IMG/VR virus record: IMGVR_UViG_2737471861_000021
Reading direction: 5' to 3' (one strand)
From: a virus
Taxonomy: Duplodnaviria; Heunggongvirae; Uroviricota; Caudoviricetes
DNA length: 27,857 bases
In this document: in pieces, positions 3,930 to 27,857 of the stretch
Position numbering within the stretch: position 1 is the first letter of the stretch
Layout of the letters: each line of letters opens with the position of its first letter
Program-made: the position numbers and the translations under genes
Notes under the pieces: model-generated
Databases searched by the model: none
What the model saw: the letters and a program-made list of their open reading frames with translations, nothing else
Told to the model about the DNA's origin: nothing

Positions 3930-4002
3930 GAACTGGAAGCAATGAGTTATGCCTTCCGTGGCTGTACGGGTTTACAGCATGAAGTCATCGCAATGGCGTC
4001 CT

Positions 4003-4092: not shown

Positions 4093-4169
4093 TGGCGTGG
4101 CATGCAGGATTCGAACCTGCGACCAACCGCTTAGAAGGCGGTTGCTCTGTCCAACTGAGCTAATGCCAC
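4093..4169 (-). tRNA. tRNA-Arg (anticodon UCU)
   Basis: Minus-strand 77-nt sequence GTGGCATTAGCTCAGTTGGACAGAGCAACCGCCTTCTAAGCGGTTGGTCGCAGGTTCGAATCCTGCATGCCACGCCA folded by hand into a cloverleaf: 7-bp acceptor stem, GCTC/GAGC D-stem, anticodon loop CUUCUAA (UCU), GCAGG-TTCGAAT-CCTGC T-arm, encoded CCA. Closely resembles E. coli argU as I recall it. Confidence 0.85.
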
Positions 4170-4596
4170 AACGCTGAGAGCACTTAGCCTGTTAAGGCAC
4201 CACACTTTGTCGCGGCTCCATAAATGCTCTCATCGTTGTACCCTCGTCTCTTCCGAGGCGTCACACCGAATCGCCGGGATGGTGAATCCCCGTGCGCGGA
4301 ATAAAACCGCTCGACTTGCACATTCCGGCTACCTGGTTCGTTTGCCCGAGCAAGGGAGGGTGCCCCTTAAACGTATCCAGACCGCTATCGGCGCATGTGC
4401 CATACGCCGTACTGCTCAAAATAAAAGCTCACTCCACCTGTTCAATTTAACGACAAGCCAGTCAGGTTAGTAACCGGAATGAACTCTTTGGTTACCTGAA
4501 AGGTAATAATTTGTGCGTTAAATGTCAACTATCTACGATAAATAAATCATATGTGGTTAAATTGGTAATAATTTAATTGCGTACGGAGTCATTGAT

Positions 4597-18107: not shown

Positions 18108-20582
18108 ATGAGACAGGAATGTATACAGGCGGTTCAGCAGGCGGCGCAGCGCATGTTAACGGCGCGAGAAATACAGAACATTGAAGACCGCATTTATCGA
18201 AATATGCGCTCCATTGCTCGTGATGACCCGATGTCGTGGCGACAACTTTCCGAATCAGATCGGCTATATCGAGCAGCACAATTGGCATCTGAAGAATTAC
18301 AGCGAGAAGCGGCATTAAAGAAACGTCGTGTGGCTCTCACTATAGCCGCGCGTCAGAGATTGGATAAATTTATCAATAGCTATCAAGGGGCTGATGGGAA
18401 ACTTGGCGCTCTTAACCGTACTATAGCTTTTAATGCAGACGGTAAATCTAATTTCCTCTCTGTTGAATCCAGAACAAAAGCCACCCGTGATTATGCATTG
18501 AGTCAATTGCAGGAGGCATTCGAAGCAGTTGATCCTCGCTTTTTTGGTCTGTTTGAAGATGAAGCGGGCGTACGTGACCTGGTATATGAAATGCGGGGGC
18601 AAAATACTGGCAATGCTAAAGCAAGAAAAGGTGCTAAGGCGTGGAGAGAAGTTACAGAGCTGCTGCGCCGCCGGTTTAATGATGCTGGTGGGGACATTGG
18701 CTATCTCGAAAACTGGGGGATCCCTCAACATCATTCTATGGAAAAGGTTGGGGCGGTATCAAAGGATAAGTGGGTTAACGATGTTATAGGTAAGCTGGAT
18801 CGCAAATATTATACCCGAGCCGATGGACAACTGATGAACGATGCCGAGTTGTCTGCATTTCTTGGAGAGGCTTATAACACGATCGCTACTGGTGGGCTGA
18901 ATAAGCTTACTGATACCGGAATGCGAATTTCCGGCGCACGTGCTAACCGTGGTAATGCATCACGACAGATACATTTCAAAGATGCTGATTCCTATCTCCA
19001 ATATCAACAACTTTATGGCGATCGCTCTCTATGGGAAATCATGGTCGGTCACCTGGAAGGTATCAGTAAAGATATTGCTCTGGTGGAAACATATGGTCCA
19101 AACCCCGATCATGTTTTCCGCTCCCTTCTTGATCAGGTTAAGGCAGAAACGGCAACAGCTAACCCGAGTAAAACCGGTAAAGTCGAGCGGCTGGCGAACA
19201 ACACAGAGAATCTGTACAACTTTATTTCCGGAAAGACACAGCCTGTAGCGAATCCGCACATCGCGCGATGGTCTGACAATATCCGCAACTGGCTGGTTGC
19301 CAGCAGACTCGGATCCGCGTTGCTGTCATCGTTCTCTGATCTTGGAACCATGTATCTGTCTGCGAAGGTGACCAACCTTCCGATGAACCAGTTATTCCGC
19401 AACCAGCTTGAAGCTATGGACCCAACGAACCGTACTGAGCTTGCGCGGGCGCGCCGCGCTGGTCTGGCGATGGAATCTCTACTTGGCAGCGTTAACCGCT
19501 GGGCGATGGATAATATGGGGCCGTCTGTGTCTCGTTGGGCTGCAACGGCGGTAATGCGTGCCAGTGGGCTTACAGCATGGTCAGATGCGCACAAGCGCGC
19601 CTATGGCGTAACCATGATGGGAAGCCTGGGAGAAGTAGTGTCACGGACACCAGACCTTCGTAGCCTCGATGACTCTGATTTTCGTATCCTGAAAAGCAAA
19701 GGGATTACTGACACAGACTGGAGCGTATGGAAGTTGGCGCAACAGGAGGACTGGGGGAACGGTAATAATACGATGCTGACACCGGAAAGCATTATGCGTA
19801 TCCCTGATTCAGCAGTTAAACATCTTGGTGAGCCTGAACGCGTGAAATTTGAGGCAATGCGTAAACTGCTCGGTGCCGTAACTGAAGAAGTTGATATGGC
19901 TGTTATTACACCGGGAGCACGTGAGCAACTGATAACCGGTTCTGGTATTCAGCGTGGAACATGGAAAGGTGAATTAACGAGAAGTGTTTTCCTGTTTAAA
20001 TCGTTCCCTATCTCGGTTGTTATGCGTCACTGGTCACGCGCTATGGGTATGCCGTCTGCTGGTGGGCGTGCGGCATATATTGCGACGTTTATTGCCAGTA
20101 CGACCATTCTTGGCGCTTTGTCGCAGCAACTTAACGACCTTGCGTCTGGTCGTAATCCTCGAGAGATGACAGGAGAAGATGCCGCAAAATTCTGGCTTGG
20201 TGCTCTACTGAAAGGTGGTGGCCTTGGCCTTTACGGTGATTTTTTGTTGTCAGATCACACGAGGTACGGAAGCGGTGCGCTGGCATCAATGCTTGGTCCG
20301 GTAGCCGGTCTGGTTGATGACGTAGTGAAGATAGCTCAGGGCATACCACTAAATGCTGTGGAAGGGAAGAACGAGCAGACTGGTGGTGATCTGGTGAAAC
20401 TTGGGAAAGGGCTGATGCCAGGTGCGAATCTCTGGTACTTGAAGGCAGCTCTTGATCACATGATCTTTAACCAGATGCAGGAGTATTTTTCACCAGGCTA
20501 TTTGCGTAAAATGGAGCAACGTTCGAAGAAAGAGTTTAACCAGACATACTGGTGGCGACCACAGGATGTCACTCCGCAATAA
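18108..20582 (+). CDS. Large internal core / ejection protein
   Basis: 824-aa ORF, last large gene of the core block, with hydrophobic segments near the C-terminus. Confidence 0.6.
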   Translation: MRQECIQAVQQAAQRMLTAREIQNIEDRIYRNMRSIARDDPMSWRQLSESDRLYRAAQLASEELQREAALKKRRVALTIAARQRLDKFINSYQGADGKLGALNRTIAFNADGKSNFLSVESRTKATRDYALSQLQEAFEAVDPRFFGLFEDEAGVRDLVYEMRGQNTGNAKARKGAKAWREVTELLRRRFNDAGGDIGYLENWGIPQHHSMEKVGAVSKDKWVNDVIGKLDRKYYTRADGQLMNDAELSAFLGEAYNTIATGGLNKLTDTGMRISGARANRGNASRQIHFKDADSYLQYQQLYGDRSLWEIMVGHLEGISKDIALVETYGPNPDHVFRSLLDQVKAETATANPSKTGKVERLANNTENLYNFISGKTQPVANPHIARWSDNIRNWLVASRLGSALLSSFSDLGTMYLSAKVTNLPMNQLFRNQLEAMDPTNRTELARARRAGLAMESLLGSVNRWAMDNMGPSVSRWAATAVMRASGLTAWSDAHKRAYGVTMMGSLGEVVSRTPDLRSLDDSDFRILKSKGITDTDWSVWKLAQQEDWGNGNNTMLTPESIMRIPDSAVKHLGEPERVKFEAMRKLLGAVTEEVDMAVITPGAREQLITGSGIQRGTWKGELTRSVFLFKSFPISVVMRHWSRAMGMPSAGGRAAYIATFIASTTILGALSQQLNDLASGRNPREMTGEDAAKFWLGALLKGGGLGLYGDFLLSDHTRYGSGALASMLGPVAGLVDDVVKIAQGIPLNAVEGKNEQTGGDLVKLGKGLMPGANLWYLKAALDHMIFNQMQEYFSPGYLRKMEQRSKKEFNQTYWWRPQDVTPQ

Positions 20583-20591
20583 GGATGAGAA

Positions 20592-20732
20592 ATGATTGCT
20601 TTTATTCTTGTTGTATTTGTGCTTGTTGCCCTTGGCGTTATGAATCGTAAATGTATCATTGAAGACGGTGAATTTGCTGTAGCAGTTGTTTTGATATTAT
20701 CTGGTGTAGCAGGGTACATAGGTTTGTCATAG
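20592..20732 (+). CDS. Small hydrophobic membrane protein (46 aa)
   Basis: Not in the ORF track (too short). ATG at 20592, nine nt after the upstream stop with an AAGGATGAG RBS. Translation MIAFILVVFVLVALGVMNRKCIIEDGEFAVAVVLILSGVAGYIGLS has two predicted TM segments. Confidence 0.4.
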   Translation: MIAFILVVFVLVALGVMNRKCIIEDGEFAVAVVLILSGVAGYIGLS

Positions 20733-20752: not shown

Positions 20753-20768
20753 GGCCGCTTTCGCGGCC
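20753..20768. terminator. GC-rich hairpin between convergent transcription units
   Basis: GGCCGC-TTTC-GCGGCC stem-loop between the + strand core operon and the minus-strand small gene; U-tract is weak. Confidence 0.35.
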
Positions 20769-20775
20769 CTTAAAT

Positions 20776-21033
20776 TTACCGGATTTGTTTTCGTAATTGT
20801 TCGGCACAATAGTCGAGATGTGTTTGCAGATCCTGCATAGACATCTGTGAGCTGGTGACGTAGTTAATCAGTGCAGTCAGTTCGGCAAGTGGGCCATCGA
20901 CATTAAATCCATCCTTATCGAGATCCCGGAGTAATTTCATCAAGTGCGATCCCTCCACCAGTGACCTGACGCCTCCCGGCGTGTGAATCCTTTCGGTAAA
21001 TCCGTCTTCCAGTGGATAGTGATACTGCTGCAT
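20776..21033 (-). CDS. Small SOS-regulated protein of unknown function (85 aa), reverse-oriented inside the tail module
   Basis: Internal ATG of track ORF 20776..21156 with a GGAGAA RBS. A LexA box lies 22-37 nt upstream of this start. Translation MQQYHYPLEDGFTERIHTPGGVRSLVEGSHLMKLLRDLDKDGFNVDGPLAELTALINYVTSSQMSMQDLQTHLDYCAEQLRKQIR. Confidence 0.5.
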   Translation of the reverse strand: MQQYHYPLEDGFTERIHTPGGVRSLVEGSHLMKLLRDLDKDGFNVDGPLAELTALINYVTSSQMSMQDLQTHLDYCAEQLRKQIR

Positions 21034-21054
21034 CTTATCTTCTCCATGCAATAA

Positions 21055-21070
21055 CTGTATATTTATACAG
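21055..21070 (-). promoter_or_regulatory. LexA (SOS) box
   Basis: CTGTATATTTATACAG is a perfect CTGT-N8-ACAG with an AT-rich spacer. The extended 20-mer AACTGTATATTTATACAGTA closely matches the E. coli consensus TACTGTATATATATACAGTA. It sits just upstream of the minus-strand small gene. Confidence 0.7.
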
Positions 21071-21228
21071 TAGCAAATAATTTGTTTGCTATCCAGCACG
21101 TTTTGCAAATTACCCGAAAGGTAATATCTATTCATATTCACAGTCTTTCTATCCATATGTGGTTTTTCAGGTAATAGAATAACCAGATATGCGGCGCAAC
21201 GGGTGCTGCGACTATCTGGAGATTTAAC

Positions 21229-23418
21229 ATGACGGTCTCAACCGAAGTTGACCACAACGAATACACAGGCAATGGCGTTACGACTTCATTCCCTTATACC
21301 TTTAGGGTTTTCAATGAATCTGATCTGGTAGTGCAGGTGGTTGACCTTGACGAAAATATCGCTGTACTGGCTCTTGATACTGATTACACTGTCACTGGGG
21401 CTGGAGGATATAACGGCGGTAATGTAATTCTGTCGAAGGCGTTAGCTAACGGTTACCAGATTTCTATATCACGAGAGCTCCCGGTTACGCAGGAAACTGA
21501 TTTGCGTAATCAGGGTAAGTTCTTTGCAGAAGTGCATGAGGATGCTTTTGATAAGCTAACGATGCTGATCCAGCAGGTTCGAAGTTGGTTCAGTTTGGCT
21601 CTGCGTAAGCCATCATTTGTTGCTAATTATTATGATGCCTTGAACAATTACATCCGCAATTTACGTGATCCTTCAAGACCTCAAGATGCAGCCACTAAAA
21701 ATTATGTTGATACACAGCTCAGTACTAGCCTCAGGTGCACATTGCGCGTTCAGGAGCAGATTCCGATACTTCCTGACGCTGCCTCCCGTGAAAACAAGAT
21801 GCTTGCTTTCGATAACAATGGTAACCCCATTGTTGTACTTCCTCCATCTGGCTCTGCTTCTGATGTATTGATCGAATTAGCTAAACCAGCAGGCGCAGGG
21901 ATGATTGGTACCAAATCAGGAGATACTGTTCAAGATACGTTGGATGAACTCAATCATAAATCAGGTTATGATAATTCTGATATTTCTTTGTATGGATATA
22001 TATATGGTAGTGGAGAGGACGCTAAGCCTTATGTTCTTGCAGCCATAGGTAAAACAGGGGTTGCGCATATCAGCGGTGATACCACATTATCAAGATTTGA
22101 CTGGCCCCAAGGTGCAAGGATTACCGGAAAAGCAACGATCACATACACAAGGCTACCAAACGTTCCATGTGAACTTGATAGTGAAATACCTGTAAACCAT
22201 TCACTAATGAAAGCTGTATATGTTCATGAGGTATTTGATATCTGCGATATGTTACAAATAAAAACAGCAGGATTTAATACTTTAATTCATTATGGTCAGG
22301 CATGGCGTGATGGTGGAGACATGGAAAAAGCATGTAACGCAGCGGAAGCAATAGGATTGCGTTTGATTTTGGGCGGGCCAATATACGGACAGACAGATAC
22401 GCCATCTTCAGAACTGGACGATAGAGATTGTGTTATAGGATATTATCTATTTGATGAACCTCAAAACCATTCTATATCGGCTTCTGCCCAGGCTACTAGA
22501 ATAAACGCGTTCAAGGCTTTCACTAAAAAGTCGCTATGTATAGCTGATAATGGCATCTTTGCTTTTGATTCACCTACTATTCCGTCAGGGTACGATGGTG
22601 TTGGCTACGATTACATATTCATTGACGCTTACGCATACGCTAATCGAGATTTCGCCACGAATAAAAGAGCGGCAGTGCTATGTTGGGCGGAAATGAAATA
22701 CAAATCCCCAAATTCTAAGCTGATCCCTTGCTTGGGTATGTTTAGCGAACCTTCTGAGTTTTCAGATAAGTCAAAGCAAATATCTTTTGCAAGGAAATTC
22801 TTTGGGATGGGGCCCGGTGATTATGCCGCCTTTGCTTGGGAGAGCAATCTTATTATTGGCACATTCAAAGACATAACTAATGATTCTGACTTTTATAATG
22901 AAGTTTTAAGTTATAATTGCATAACAGAACAAAAACCATACAAAACAGATGTTTATGTGTTTTACACAGATAGAATGGGTGGGGCTATGCAGTTGTACAA
23001 TGACAAGTACAGTTCTGCCGATGTCACACCATTCCAGACTATCAATGCTGGGAGCGCACAAGGTGAGCGTAACACCACATTCAAAAAGGGTGGTATCGCG
23101 GCAAGAAACACCGGAGGCGTGTTTGCTACGAGGATGAAGAACCACGGGTACGTGGCTGTTGAGCTGTATTATTTTAACGGTGCAGATACCGCAAATACTA
23201 CAGCATCAATAACAACTTGCATTGACGATTTTTACACAAACACCCCGCAGCTTACGTTCACGCTCTCAACTACACAAAACGCCTGGATAAACTCTGTGGA
23301 AACAACACCTAATCTCGGTGTTGGTATAAAGATTATCCCAAGCCAATCTTACCAATATAGGTGGAAATTCATATATGGTGGCATAGTTGATTGCTCATGG
23401 AGAGGTGATTCATTTTAA
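21229..23418 (+). CDS. Tailspike / receptor-binding protein
   Basis: 729-aa ORF with a GGAGA RBS. N-terminus 'MTVSTEVDHNEYTGNGVTTSFPYTFRVF...' matches what I recall of the epsilon15-family tailspike head-binding domain. The distal two-thirds is AT-rich and divergent. Confidence 0.8.
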   Translation: MTVSTEVDHNEYTGNGVTTSFPYTFRVFNESDLVVQVVDLDENIAVLALDTDYTVTGAGGYNGGNVILSKALANGYQISISRELPVTQETDLRNQGKFFAEVHEDAFDKLTMLIQQVRSWFSLALRKPSFVANYYDALNNYIRNLRDPSRPQDAATKNYVDTQLSTSLRCTLRVQEQIPILPDAASRENKMLAFDNNGNPIVVLPPSGSASDVLIELAKPAGAGMIGTKSGDTVQDTLDELNHKSGYDNSDISLYGYIYGSGEDAKPYVLAAIGKTGVAHISGDTTLSRFDWPQGARITGKATITYTRLPNVPCELDSEIPVNHSLMKAVYVHEVFDICDMLQIKTAGFNTLIHYGQAWRDGGDMEKACNAAEAIGLRLILGGPIYGQTDTPSSELDDRDCVIGYYLFDEPQNHSISASAQATRINAFKAFTKKSLCIADNGIFAFDSPTIPSGYDGVGYDYIFIDAYAYANRDFATNKRAAVLCWAEMKYKSPNSKLIPCLGMFSEPSEFSDKSKQISFARKFFGMGPGDYAAFAWESNLIIGTFKDITNDSDFYNEVLSYNCITEQKPYKTDVYVFYTDRMGGAMQLYNDKYSSADVTPFQTINAGSAQGERNTTFKKGGIAARNTGGVFATRMKNHGYVAVELYYFNGADTANTTASITTCIDDFYTNTPQLTFTLSTTQNAWINSVETTPNLGVGIKIIPSQSYQYRWKFIYGGIVDCSWRGDSF

Positions 23419-23466: not shown

Positions 23467-24585
23467 TTATAATTTTATTCCTTTTCCGTACTTAATTAGT
23501 GGTCGTTCAATAAAAGAAAATGTAAGTGATGATAAAACACACAGTGCTACGAATAGAATTGTTATCATTGGGAGTGAGATATTTAGGTTGTTAATATCAT
23601 ATTTATCTTTAATAAAGGCAAATGAAGGATAGAAAACAACCCCTTGTAAAAGGTAAATGCTGTAAGAGCACTCCCCCAAACGAGTAAATCCCTTTATATT
23701 CAATATACCAAACAAGCTTGCGCCTTTAGCCACGCAAAGCATAAACACTGTGACTATTATCCACGGTCTAGTGCTGTTAAGTGATGGATTTAACAGTACG
23801 AATATAGTCACAGATGCTAACAGCATGAGGTCAGATGTTTTTTTTGATAATGAAATTCTGCATGATAACTCCTTAGATAGGATACCACAGGCGAAAGCAG
23901 AATAATACCAATATGATGCATCTGTAAATGATGGTAGAAAATACATACAAACAAACATAATACCAATTGAAGCTTCAAGTGGCTTGGAACGTAAAAAATA
24001 AATGATTGGTAAAGAGAAGTAGAATCCCCATTCCCACTTTATTGTCCATGTTACACCAGACAACACCAATACAGAATTATTGAATCCATTTATATTAGGT
24101 TTTATGTCAAATACACTTGCGTCAAACCATTTCAACAAATCATCCAAACTAATATTGTTGTGGTTTGTTGACATTAAAATAATATATGATACAGCAATGA
24201 ATGATGAAAGATATGTCATCGGTACGATTCTAAAAAATCTATCTTTATATAAGTTTATCCAGTCAATATTTTTTGATTTACGAATCTTTCCCCAGAAAAG
24301 AAAAGCTGTAATTGAAAAGAAAATCGCTACGCCAAATTTCCCTATTGAATAAATAAAATCAGAATGAGTAGTCCATTTATTTATTGTAAAATAATTAATA
24401 AAATAGTCTGAGTGATGGAACACAACCATGGATGCAAGAATATATCTTAGACCATCAAGATTCCGCTCCCTTGAGTAATCATGATCTTTCCCGTCTATGT
24501 AAGAAAAAACATTAGAGCTAAATAAAAGACCACATATAAAAATTGAACATCCAACCCACAAGTATATGATAACAGAGTCAGTCAT
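23467..24585 (-). CDS. Integral-membrane acyltransferase (acyltransferase family 3; O-antigen acetyltransferase-like)
   Basis: 372-aa polytopic membrane protein with 'LDGLRYILASMVVFHH' near the N-terminus and 'SYSIYLLQGVVFYP...FIERP' near the C-terminus, both typical of Acyltransferase_3 (Oac/OafA-like). Strongly AT-rich relative to the rest of the prophage. Confidence 0.75.
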   Translation of the reverse strand: MTDSVIIYLWVGCSIFICGLLFSSNVFSYIDGKDHDYSRERNLDGLRYILASMVVFHHSDYFINYFTINKWTTHSDFIYSIGKFGVAIFFSITAFLFWGKIRKSKNIDWINLYKDRFFRIVPMTYLSSFIAVSYIILMSTNHNNISLDDLLKWFDASVFDIKPNINGFNNSVLVLSGVTWTIKWEWGFYFSLPIIYFLRSKPLEASIGIMFVCMYFLPSFTDASYWYYSAFACGILSKELSCRISLSKKTSDLMLLASVTIFVLLNPSLNSTRPWIIVTVFMLCVAKGASLFGILNIKGFTRLGECSYSIYLLQGVVFYPSFAFIKDKYDINNLNISLPMITILFVALCVLSSLTFSFIERPLIKYGKGIKL

Positions 24586-24777
24586 TTTTAGTTTCCATAT
24601 TATATTCCAGTATTAGCTGCATGCAGAACCATTTTCCTATGGACGGCAGCATTGTATCACCCAGGGGGTAATTTCGGTAGGGGTATTCTTAGGTAATACA
24701 TATCCATATATGGTTTATTGTGTATGATGTACTCACCAACTAAGGGGGTTCTTTATGCACATTAAACGGTGGTCATA

Positions 24778-25477: not shown

Positions 25478-26096
25478 ACAATTCCAGCGAGCTGCTGGTA
25501 TCAGTGAGTCACTGGCCGCACGCTGGTTCTCGCATATAACTTCTGCGATGAAAGAGTTTGGTATCAGCAAACCAGAAGATCAGGCTATGTTTATTGCTCA
25601 GGTCGGGCATGAGTCTGGAGGCTTCACCCGGTTGCAGGAGAATTTCAACTACAGCGTCAGCGGACTGGCTAACTTTGTTCGGGCTGGGCGTCTCACTCAG
25701 GGACAGGCCAACGCATTGGGGCGACGCGCAGGCGAACCACCATTGCCACTTGAGCGCCAGCGCGCGATCGCAAATCTGGTATACAGCAAACGCATGGGGA
25801 ACAATGCCCCTGGTGATGGCTGGAATTACCGAGGGCGCGGACTTATCCAGATTACCGGTTTGAATAACTATCGTGATTGCGGAAACGGTCTGAAGGTTGA
25901 CCTGCTGGAGAGCCCTGAACTGCTGGCGCAGGACGAATATGCGGCTCGTAGCGCGGCGTGGTTCTTCGCCAGCAAAGGATGCATGAAGTATACCGGCGAT
26001 ATTGCACGTGTAACTCTGATTATCAATGGTGGCCGGAACGGCATCGACGACCGGCGAGCGCGGTACATCACTGCCAGTAAGGTGCTGGCGGTATGA
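25467..26096 (+). CDS. Endolysin, glycoside hydrolase family 19 (chitinase-like) type
   Basis: 209 aa. '[12 protein letters not shown]', '[12 protein letters not shown]' and '[12 protein letters not shown]' are GH19 endolysin signatures; from memory it is very close to the Salmonella phage SPN1S endolysin. Confidence 0.9.
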
Positions 26097-26590
26097 TCTG
26101 GGCATTCGTAAAAGCATACTGGAAACAGTTGCTTATCGTGGCAGTGCTTGCTGTTCTGGTCATATCAGGAGTGGTTGCCTGGAATATACACGGCAGTCGC
26201 CAGTACGATGCCGGGTATGCTCAGGCGAAGGAAGATCAGAAACAGGCTGATGATAAGTTAAGGTCACAGCGTGAGCAGGAGAAAACACAAATTGAACGTG
26301 AAGCACAATCCCGTATCGATGCGGCGCGTGCTGATGCTGAGTATGCTAATTCCGCTGCTGACAGCATGCGCGCCGAGCTTGACAAAACCAGGCGGCTCGC
26401 CGAACACTATACCGGATCTTTCCCCCCTGGCACGCCAGCCAGCAAGGTCATCGGTGTGCTCGCCGACATGCTTGAAGAAAGCAACCGAGTTTACAACGCA
26501 ACAGCAGCTGAGGCTGAAAAGTATCGTATCGCAGGGGAATTCTGCGAGCAGCAATACGATTCACTGAAGAAGCAAAAATCGTGGCACTGA
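26093..26590 (+). CDS. Rz: i-spanin (Rz-like)
   Basis: 165 aa with an N-terminal TM helix ([18 protein letters not shown]) and a charged coiled-coil-like periplasmic domain; directly follows the endolysin with an ATGA overlap. Confidence 0.7.
26319..26567 (+). CDS. Rz1: o-spanin lipoprotein (Rz1-like), embedded in the +1 frame of Rz
   Basis: Internal ATG of track ORF 26271..26567. Signal peptide [17 protein letters not shown] with an LTAC lipobox, followed by a Pro-rich mature region. Lies entirely within Rz in a different frame. Confidence 0.6.
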   Translation: MRRVLMLSMLIPLLTACAPSLTKPGGSPNTIPDLSPLARQPARSSVCSPTCLKKATEFTTQQQLRLKSIVSQGNSASSNTIH

Positions 26591-26716
26591 TTTCCGGTGA
26601 CGGTATATAAAACGGTACGGGAAAAGTTGAGGTTTGTAAAAGTGTTATCACTCAATTGGTTATGGTTGTCGTAAATAATTGAGTGGGAATGATTTTAATC
26701 CCTGCACTATGAATGA

Positions 26717-26749
26717 ACAAAACCCTCTGTTACTACAGAGGGTTTTTTA
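26717..26749. terminator. Strong bidirectional rho-independent terminator
   Basis: AAAA-CCCTCTGT-tact-ACAGAGGG-TTTTTT between the lysis operon (+) and the convergent envelope genes (-). A second hairpin, CTTCAAG-N9-CTTGAAG, lies at 26751-26773. Confidence 0.65.
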
Positions 26750-26786
26750 TCTTCAAGAATCATAGGCTTGAAGTTACTAACATCGA

Positions 26787-27326
26787 TTAATTAAACCAGC
26801 TGTCCGATTTGTTCTCTTCTGCTTTGCCCACGCTTTTCATCAGATCGCGACCGCCTTCAGTCATATTTCTGTTGGCGTCAGCTTCAGATTGCACCACATC
26901 GGTTTGCGCAGCTTTGTGCTTCAGTTCCTGATCGATAAATTCGTTTTCTCGCTTAACGCGGGCTTCTTCTTTTGCCAGCGCCAGTTTTTGTTTCTGAATC
27001 TCTAAGCTGCGTAGCTCATCTTCATAACTTTGATCGCGTTTTTTGTCCGCAGAGGCTTCGGCGTCCAGTTTATCCTGACGAGCTTTCTTATTTGCCGCTG
27101 CCGTTGCCGCTCTTTTGTTAGCGGCGGCCTGGGCATTTGCGCGACGTTGCTTCTCTTGCTGGATTTCCCTGTTGCGCTCCGCGACCCATTCGTCATGCTG
27201 CCTTTGCTCTTCATTTTTACCTTGCTGTTCAGCTTCTGCTACAGCAGAGAGTTGATCCTGCAATGATGAGGCGATAGCCGGATAGCTTAAGGAGGCCAAG
27301 ATGGCGCAAAGAAAAACTTTCTTCAT
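26787..27326 (-). CDS. Secreted/periplasmic coiled-coil protein, function unknown
   Basis: 179 aa with a signal peptide (MKKVFLCAILASLSYPAIASS) and a highly charged Ala/Lys/Glu/Gln-rich helical remainder; RBS present. Confidence 0.6.
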   Translation of the reverse strand: MKKVFLCAILASLSYPAIASSLQDQLSAVAEAEQQGKNEEQRQHDEWVAERNREIQQEKQRRANAQAAANKRAATAAANKKARQDKLDAEASADKKRDQSYEDELRSLEIQKQKLALAKEEARVKRENEFIDQELKHKAAQTDVVQSEADANRNMTEGGRDLMKSVGKAEENKSDSWFN

Positions 27327-27341
27327 GACTCCTCCTGATTA

Positions 27342-27857
27342 TTAGCTCTTTTCAGGACATTTAGTATTTGGCTGAATACGCGTTTCGTTATACGTTGTGG
27401 TAATAACAACGGCTAAACCTGTCGTAAACTGGCACTCTTTACCCACCTGGGTAGAGGTATACACTTTGGTGCCTTCCTTATATGTTAAAGAAACACCTTC
27501 CACTAAGGTTTTATCATTCACCATAGAACCCACTGCCGCGCCTACAGCTCCGCCGCCAACTGCCCCTGCCGTCGTTCCGGAATTGCTGCCAGAACCGACG
27601 TTGTGGCCGATAACACCGCCAGCGACTGCGCCAATAAGCGCGCCGAAGGCTTGTGCGTTCCGTTTATTTTGGGAGTTGTCTACGGCAACTTTTGCGGGAA
27701 GAATGGAAATAATATTAACGGTTTTAGTTTCTTGTTTGGTATTCAGTTGATCGGTTTGATAAACATCGGCGGCATGATCGTCAGCATTTGACTGGCATCC
27801 TGCCAGAGTGAATGACGCTAACATTGCCACAGGCAGAAGACATTTTTTAAATTTCAT
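27342..27857 (-). CDS. Outer-membrane lipoprotein with a glycine-zipper domain (YcfJ/SlyB/17-kDa-antigen-like)
   Basis: 171 aa. Signal peptide plus lipobox (LAGC) and a Gly-zipper segment 'GALIGAVAGGVIGHNVGSG...GGGAVGAAVGS' resembling YcfJ/SlyB-type lipoproteins (recollection). Its start codon is the last triplet of the window. Confidence 0.65.
   Translation of the reverse strand: MKFKKCLLPVAMLASFTLAGCQSNADDHAADVYQTDQLNTKQETKTVNIISILPAKVAVDNSQNKRNAQAFGALIGAVAGGVIGHNVGSGSNSGTTAGAVGGGAVGAAVGSMVNDKTLVEGVSLTYKEGTKVYTSTQVGKECQFTTGLAVVITTTYNETRIQPNTKCPEKS

Follow-up and report, generated by a model that had tools for sequence, protein, structure and literature searches.

An SPC32H-type ant gene behind a near-consensus LexA box as the probable SOS switch of a Uetakevirus prophage in Escherichia coli

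In the 27,857-nucleotide stretch of viral DNA analyzed here (the window), all large open reading frames (ORFs) between positions 1250 and 23418 lie on the plus strand, with one exception. As the original prediction had pointed out, this small ORF runs against the virion genes. It occupies positions 20776 to 21033 of the minus strand, including the stop codon, codes for 85 amino acids, and is assigned by homology, dN/dS, and synteny to the antirepressor gene ant. The gene convergent with it, which ends the ejection/core-protein operon, encodes a 46-aa two-helix membrane protein (20592 to 20732, plus strand; phrog_7892, 2.5e-31). This protein has counterparts in SPC32H_019 and in PhiV10p21, a “putative integral membrane protein”, and serves as a synteny marker outside the switch itself. 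Between the two genes a terminator scan detected a G+C-rich hairpin, GGCCGC-TTTC-GCGGCC (20753 to 20768), which probably is a terminator common to both; a rho-independent terminator is annotated in ε15 and phiV10 at or near the equivalent place. On its other side, ant is flanked by the divergent tailspike gene (21229 to 23418, plus strand), the counterpart of SPC32H tsp. PHROG tail-protein families match the tailspike only over its first ~240 aa, the head-binding domain common to Uetakevirus, and the remainder is a swapped receptor-binding module. Beyond the tailspike lies a gene for a 372-aa acyltransferase-3 (23467 to 24585, minus strand). This enzyme, probably an O-antigen acetylase that mediates serotype conversion, falls short of the ~620 aa of the oac products in SPC32H and PAS61. 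Of 5426 complete E. coli genomes, 531 (~10%) contain DNA matching the ant locus, where the gene is nearly always labelled “hypothetical protein”, and the tailspike region (21229 to 23418 and 23467 to 24585) is covered to at least 80% in only five complete genomes of this species.

The resulting gene order (824-aa virion protein, 46-aa protein, ant on the minus strand, tailspike, acyltransferase on the minus strand, holin and endolysin) matches that of SPC32H_018 to SPC32H_027. In the GenBank record of SPC32H, ant is SPC32H_020 (19676 to 19936, minus strand), located between the 46-aa gene and tsp, with oac and the lysis cassette coming next; rep is SPC32H_041, ~14 kb from ant. The gene had been described as wedged between the core-protein operon and the tailspike, and this is confirmed; it is the very slot of SPC32H ant. 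Like SPC32H, the window has a tRNA-Arg gene (anticodon TCT; 4093 to 4169, minus strand) between the large terminase gene and the portal operon. The DNA around ant is 96% identical to that of Escherichia phage vB_EcoP_PAS61 and 93–94% identical to that of phiV10, both members of Uetakevirus (ε15-like phages). A near-identical prophage, with 99.2% identity over the ant locus, resides in an E. coli chromosome where yfgI, yfgH, and yfgG follow right after the Rz-like gene. In the window the Rz-like gene (26093 to 26590) is the last prophage gene, and the two subsequent minus-strand ORFs (26787 to 27326 and 27342 to 27857) have the positions and sizes of the host genes yfgI and yfgH, annotated in that chromosome as DUF5384 and glycine-zipper 2TM proteins, respectively. 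Hence, attR is expected at approximately 26590 to 26787. Judged from these matches, the window comprises the right arm of an integrated E. coli prophage of the phiV10 type together with the host yfgI/yfgH flank. The near-identical prophage next to yfgI and yfgH also indicates that the window derives from a lysogen, in which control by LexA is meaningful. The yfgH-like ORF is labelled “DNA methyltransferase” by PHROGs (phrog_1277), which looks like a mislabelled family.

The ant product begins with MQQYHYPLEDG, encoded from an ATG at 21033. This start is preceded by the ribosome-binding site GGAGAAG (21039 to 21045, minus strand), whose GGAG (21045 to 21042) is placed 8 nt before the ATG and is invariant in all 14 aligned relatives, so that the good ribosome-binding site ascribed to the 85-aa ORF is indeed present. 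A longer reading of 126 aa from an ATG at 21156 corresponds to the version annotated in phage PAS61. However, nine of the 14 relatives have an in-frame stop codon 6 to 13 codons before the conserved ATG, as do phiV10 and TL-2011b at a distance of 37 codons. Since stops thus interrupt the extension in 11 of the 14, and since the LexA box discussed below would fall inside it, we rejected the 126-aa start. PGAP annotates a 258-nt coding sequence in the near-identical E. coli prophage. Comparison with ant of SPC32H yielded pN = 0.081 and pS = 0.645, and the resulting dN/dS ratio of ~0.06 indicates a real gene under strong purifying selection.

What this gene encodes was settled by a search of solved structures. 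In a phmmer search against the PDB, residues 2 to 83 of 85 matched chain E of entry 5D50, an 86-aa “Anti-repressor protein”, with E = 1.6e-46, and tblastn aligned the ORF with SPC32H Ant at 72 of 82 identical residues (87.8%). The orthologs phiV10p24, ε15 gp19, and homologs in E. coli prophages are 84–100% identical to it; the phiV10p24, TL-2011b, and PAS61 proteins fall at 96–100%. By homology, the 85-aa protein is an ortholog of the SPC32H antirepressor Ant. The original prediction had not recognized the protein, which turns out to be a named one with a solved structure, but its first candidate, an SOS-induced antirepressor following the logic of Tum or the Gifsy phages, agrees well with an SPC32H Ant ortholog of 88% identity in the same synteny. 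Protein family databases are less informative. PHROGs returned a full-length match to phrog_450 (1.1e-47), a family listed there with unknown function, and a weak match to the anti-repressor family phrog_1760 (E = 4.5e-7), which is confined to profile positions 177 to 225 of 232. No Pfam or NCBIfam family was assigned to Ant, as the hits to DUF724 (17.5 bits at a cut-off of 38.4) and UpsF were both sub-threshold. An anti-repressor of the Bro-N/KilA-C type was considered and rejected: the match to phrog_1760 is limited to ~50 residues at the C-terminus of that family, and a Pfam search found no Bro-N domain in Ant. In RefSeq E. coli genomes and in most phage records, the homologs of Ant carry the label “hypothetical protein”.

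Upstream of ant lies a palindromic, and hence strandless, LexA (SOS) box predicted by matrix score, the 20-mer AACTGTATATTTATACAGTA (21053 to 21072), which reads TACTGTATAAATATACAGTT in the sense of ant. Its core of the form CTGT-N8-ACAG, CTGTATATTTATACAG, spans 21055 to 21070. The 20-mer is separated from the ant ATG by 19 nt, and the 16-nt core is located 22 to 37 nt upstream of its A; sequence and coordinates of the almost perfect box are as originally described. The symmetrized position weight matrix (PWM) used for scoring derives from 24 SOS boxes of E. coli known from the literature, and not from a database. In this LexA-box scan, which had been suggested as a check, the box reached 28.1 bits out of a maximum of 29.6 bits for the matrix consensus TACTGTATATATATACAGTA, and thus lies above all 24 training sites (12.7 to 26.6 bits). 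The second-best score within the window was 9.5 bits, and the top scores of 300 Markov-1 simulated windows averaged 10.5 bits and peaked at 20.9 bits. The SOS box is therefore near-consensus, far beyond chance, and the single such site in the window. The bare pattern CTGT-N8-ACAG occurs three times in the window, with 0.43 copies expected, but the copies at 3962 and 8504 were dismissed as LexA sites, for they score at most 9.5 bits and have G+C-rich spacers.

An alignment of the 200 nt upstream of ant illustrates how this box has been maintained. It comprised 14 genomes: the window, PAS61, TL-2011b, phiV10, ε15, SPC32H, 65FD, VB_ST_E15, SPNIS2, Tyrion, BUCT554, and three Klebsiella phages. Eleven of these Uetakevirus genomes contain a perfect CTGT-N8-ACAG (22.3 to 28.2 bits), and in all 11 the distance from box to ATG is constant at 19 nt. 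The box is found at the same position in phages of E. coli, Salmonella, and Enterobacter. Its spacer is variable, however, with five variants among the first nine genomes (ATAAATAT, ATATTTAT, GTATTTAT, ATGTTTAT, and ATAAGCAT) and a sixth in BUCT554. The three Klebsiella phages, whose Ant proteins are 58–63% identical, have a weaker ATGT-N8-ACAG that scores 16.6 to 17.9 bits, values that also occur among genuine SOS boxes of E. coli. Invariant half-sites around a free spacer, in an intergenic region that otherwise diverges, are the signature of a selected protein-binding site. Direct control by LexA within a late structural region had been called unusual. For this lineage it is not, because the arrangement is conserved throughout the genus Uetakevirus, and its slot parallels the immI region (mnt-arc-ant) of P22, where an antirepressor gene likewise separates tailspike gene 9 from the genes for ejection proteins. 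The likeness to P22 is one of placing. P22 Ant, with 300 aa, is unrelated and is controlled by Mnt, Arc, and sar RNA instead of LexA. Furthermore, the P22 c2 repressor is RecA-cleavable, and a P22 ant mutant remains SOS-inducible.

The promoter of ant is less obvious than its operator. A sigma-70 consensus scan of the window detected no promoter on the ant strand. Conservation points to a candidate on the minus strand with a -35 hexamer TGGATA (21095 to 21090), a 17-bp spacer, and a -10 hexamer TACTGT (21072 to 21067), where TGCTGGATAG, 17 bp upstream of TACTGT, forms a conserved block in otherwise variable intergenic DNA. These hexamers are our best guess, and the putative -10 would coincide with the left half of the LexA box. 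On the plus strand upstream of the tailspike gene (21150 to 21185), the blocks CATATG-GGTT and GGTAATAGAAT are invariant across the relatives, with TAGAAT at 21175 to 21180. These blocks are a candidate tailspike promoter, whose weak -35 suggests dependence on an activator or control via the nearby palindrome ATTACC-N5-GGTAAT described below.

Taken together, the window very probably contains the ant gene of an ε15/phiV10-type (Uetakevirus) E. coli prophage with its LexA operator, which would act as an SOS switch through the repressor Rep. In the lysogen, host LexA bound to the SOS box would overlap the -10 and start of the ant promoter and silence the gene, and Rep, which itself would not be inactivated by RecA, would keep the lytic promoters closed. 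Upon DNA damage, activated RecA would trigger self-cleavage of LexA and thereby transcription of ant. Ant would then bind the C-terminal tetramerization domain of Rep and convert the DNA-binding tetramer to dimers, so that Rep would leave its operators and the prophage enter lytic growth. The repression of ant by LexA, the binding of Rep by Ant, and the effect on the tetramer are carried over, by analogy, from experiments with SPC32H. SPC32H produces Ant once LexA has cleaved itself, and the protein blocks the repressor through protein-protein interaction (PMC7380047); a second paper lists SPC32H among phages that activate the lytic cycle via host LexA (PMC9437464), and a third mentions that the C-terminal domain of Rep serves both tetramerization and Ant binding (PMC9986798). 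If the same holds here, Ant explains why the repressor of Uetakevirus phages need not be RecA-cleavable. In the SPC32H work of Kim and Ryu (2013) and Kim et al. (2016), Rep reportedly was not cleaved by RecA, and the authors are said to have remarked on the conservation of Ant and Rep in ε15-like phages.

No Rep was found in the window by tblastn, and synteny with PAS61 would put it ~5 kb beyond the left end. Among phage records, 35 contain Ant and 36 contain Rep, and these are essentially the same genomes (Escherichia 15 with Ant and 16 with Rep, Salmonella 12 and 12, Klebsiella 4 and 4, Enterobacter 3 and 3); each record that contains Ant has a Rep homolog as well. Between SPC32H and the E. 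coli relatives, Rep shares only ~42% identity (~50% in the helix-turn-helix region), whereas Ant is 84–100% identical among Escherichia and Salmonella phages and 88% identical to its SPC32H counterpart. The segment NLVNRW, a putative recognition helix, is shared by the Rep proteins of SPC32H and PAS61. We infer by analogy that the Ant encoded in the window would bind the E. coli Rep despite its 42% identity to the SPC32H protein.

A LexA-controlled Ant system has already been known since 2013, and with a crystal structure. It was reportedly described for SPC32H by Kim and Ryu in 2013 (J Virol 87:11775) and by Kim et al. in 2016 (PNAS), with the structures PDB 5D4Z and 5D50. The locus in the window shares with SPC32H the genus Uetakevirus, the genomic slot, orientation, and ribosome-binding site of ant, the distance from box to ATG, and an operator-like palindrome upstream, and the Ant proteins have 85 aa here and 86 aa in SPC32H. 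Besides the diverged Rep, the differences are the host (E. coli instead of Salmonella) and the strength of the box, which reaches 25.3 bits in SPC32H and 28.1 bits here with the same matrix. The orthologs phiV10p24 and ε15 gp19 are annotated only as “hypothetical protein”, and the main value of the present assignment lies in annotation: such genes have an ortholog whose genetics are defined and whose structure was solved by crystallography. The locus also occurs in STEC backgrounds, for example in O157 and O103 phages, and recognizing ant amounts to recognizing the likely SOS-to-lysis switch of serotype-converting prophages that carry tailspike and O-antigen acetylase genes. Tum of phage 186 and GfoA/GfhA of the Gifsy phages share the logic of a small LexA-controlled antirepressor acting on a non-cleavable repressor (PMC7380047; PMC3121763). 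Their genomic locations differ from that of ant, however, and their mode of repressor inactivation may be other than the breaking of a tetramer by SPC32H Ant. No Tum-like or Gifsy-type family appeared among the Pfam, PHROGs, NCBIfam, and PDB matches of Ant, which we therefore file, by analogy, as working like Tum and GfoA/GfhA and not as a member of their families.

LexA may not be the only regulator at this locus. Between the ant and tailspike promoters, the perfect palindrome ATTACC-N5-GGTAAT (21109 to 21125) is conserved in all 14 relatives and is probably a Rep operator. Its equivalent in ε15 is annotated as protein_bind “repressor, lysogeny” and adjoins an IHF site, although this annotation is itself a prediction. 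SPC32H has eight perfect copies of the palindrome clustered around rep, including three on its left flank; on the right flank, in the rep/042 intergenic region, one perfect copy is accompanied by two near-perfect ones. Allowing at most one mismatch, the window contains five copies with 0.04 expected. The other four, all near-perfect, are located at 1295 to 1311 and 1313 to 1329 (terS), at 4491 to 4507 (portal operon), and at 24656 to 24672 (lysis cassette), so that each copy, including the perfect one at ant/tailspike, stands at the head of a transcription unit. If the palindrome is the Rep operator, Rep would gate the late transcription units directly and might also influence ant. These observations, together with the NLVNRW segment common to both Rep proteins, lend some weight to a dual control of ant by LexA and by Rep bound at 21109 to 21125, in which the production of Ant would reinforce itself as soon as Rep is titrated and Rep would gate the late operons. 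We regard this reading, an extension of the main explanation and not a replacement for it, as conceivable but rather doubtful. With its center ~57 bp ahead of the inferred start of ant, the site is poorly placed for simple repression of this gene, and the palindrome might act for the tailspike promoter alone or serve another phage regulator, such as a late activator.

Somewhat less likely still, though worth considering, is an action of Ant in trans on the diverged Rep proteins of co-resident or superinfecting Uetakeviruses, combined with a positive Rep–ant feedback that makes induction bistable. The idea follows from the conservation of Ant far above that of Rep and from the presence of the locus in about one of ten E. 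coli genomes, owing to which Ant could act in trans. If true, diverged Uetakeviruses would cross-induce each other in the style of the Gifsy phages, and a loop in which Rep represses ant and Ant removes Rep would turn induction into a bistable process that goes beyond a simple read-out of LexA. Cross-induction and the feedback loop would be the only routes to novelty that we see, and ant itself opens no new question.

The remaining explanations depart from the LexA–Ant–Rep switch altogether. The original prediction had also proposed a cell-division or host-physiology effector or a toxin-like moron, and our data offer no support for these candidates. That ant is an SOS-induced moron with such a host-directed function, and no antirepressor at all, is highly improbable: its one basis is that the protein belongs to no Pfam or NCBIfam family and bears the RefSeq label “hypothetical protein”, whereas it is 88% identical to a protein crystallized together with its repressor target, co-occurs with Rep, and weakly matches the C-terminus of the phrog_1760 anti-repressors. 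Finally, the ant–tailspike intergenic region is common to both genes and no textbook ant promoter was detected, but that the box is vestigial or due to chance, or controls the divergent tailspike instead of ant, can be practically discounted, as it outscores all training sites, was never approached in the simulations, keeps its constant 19 nt to the ant ATG in the 11 genomes with a perfect box, and lies 157 nt from the tailspike ATG, beyond the operator palindrome.

Larger anti-repressors of close relatives resemble Ant in part. The phages phiV10, Tyrion, and TL-2011b differ from the window in an additional gene just downstream of ant, which codes for a Bro-N-type “anti-immunity/anti-repressor” protein. 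In phiV10 this gene lies on the minus strand at 2001 to 2680 of the stretch compared, and it has no counterpart in the window. Residues 150 to 180 of phiV10p23 resemble residues 2 to 32 of Ant, a stretch of 31 residues with 45% identity, and a small ORF beside phiV10p23 resembles Ant residues 34 to 75. Given these similarities and the C-terminal location of the phrog_1760 match, Ant resembles a stand-alone copy of the module found at the C-terminus of larger anti-repressors.
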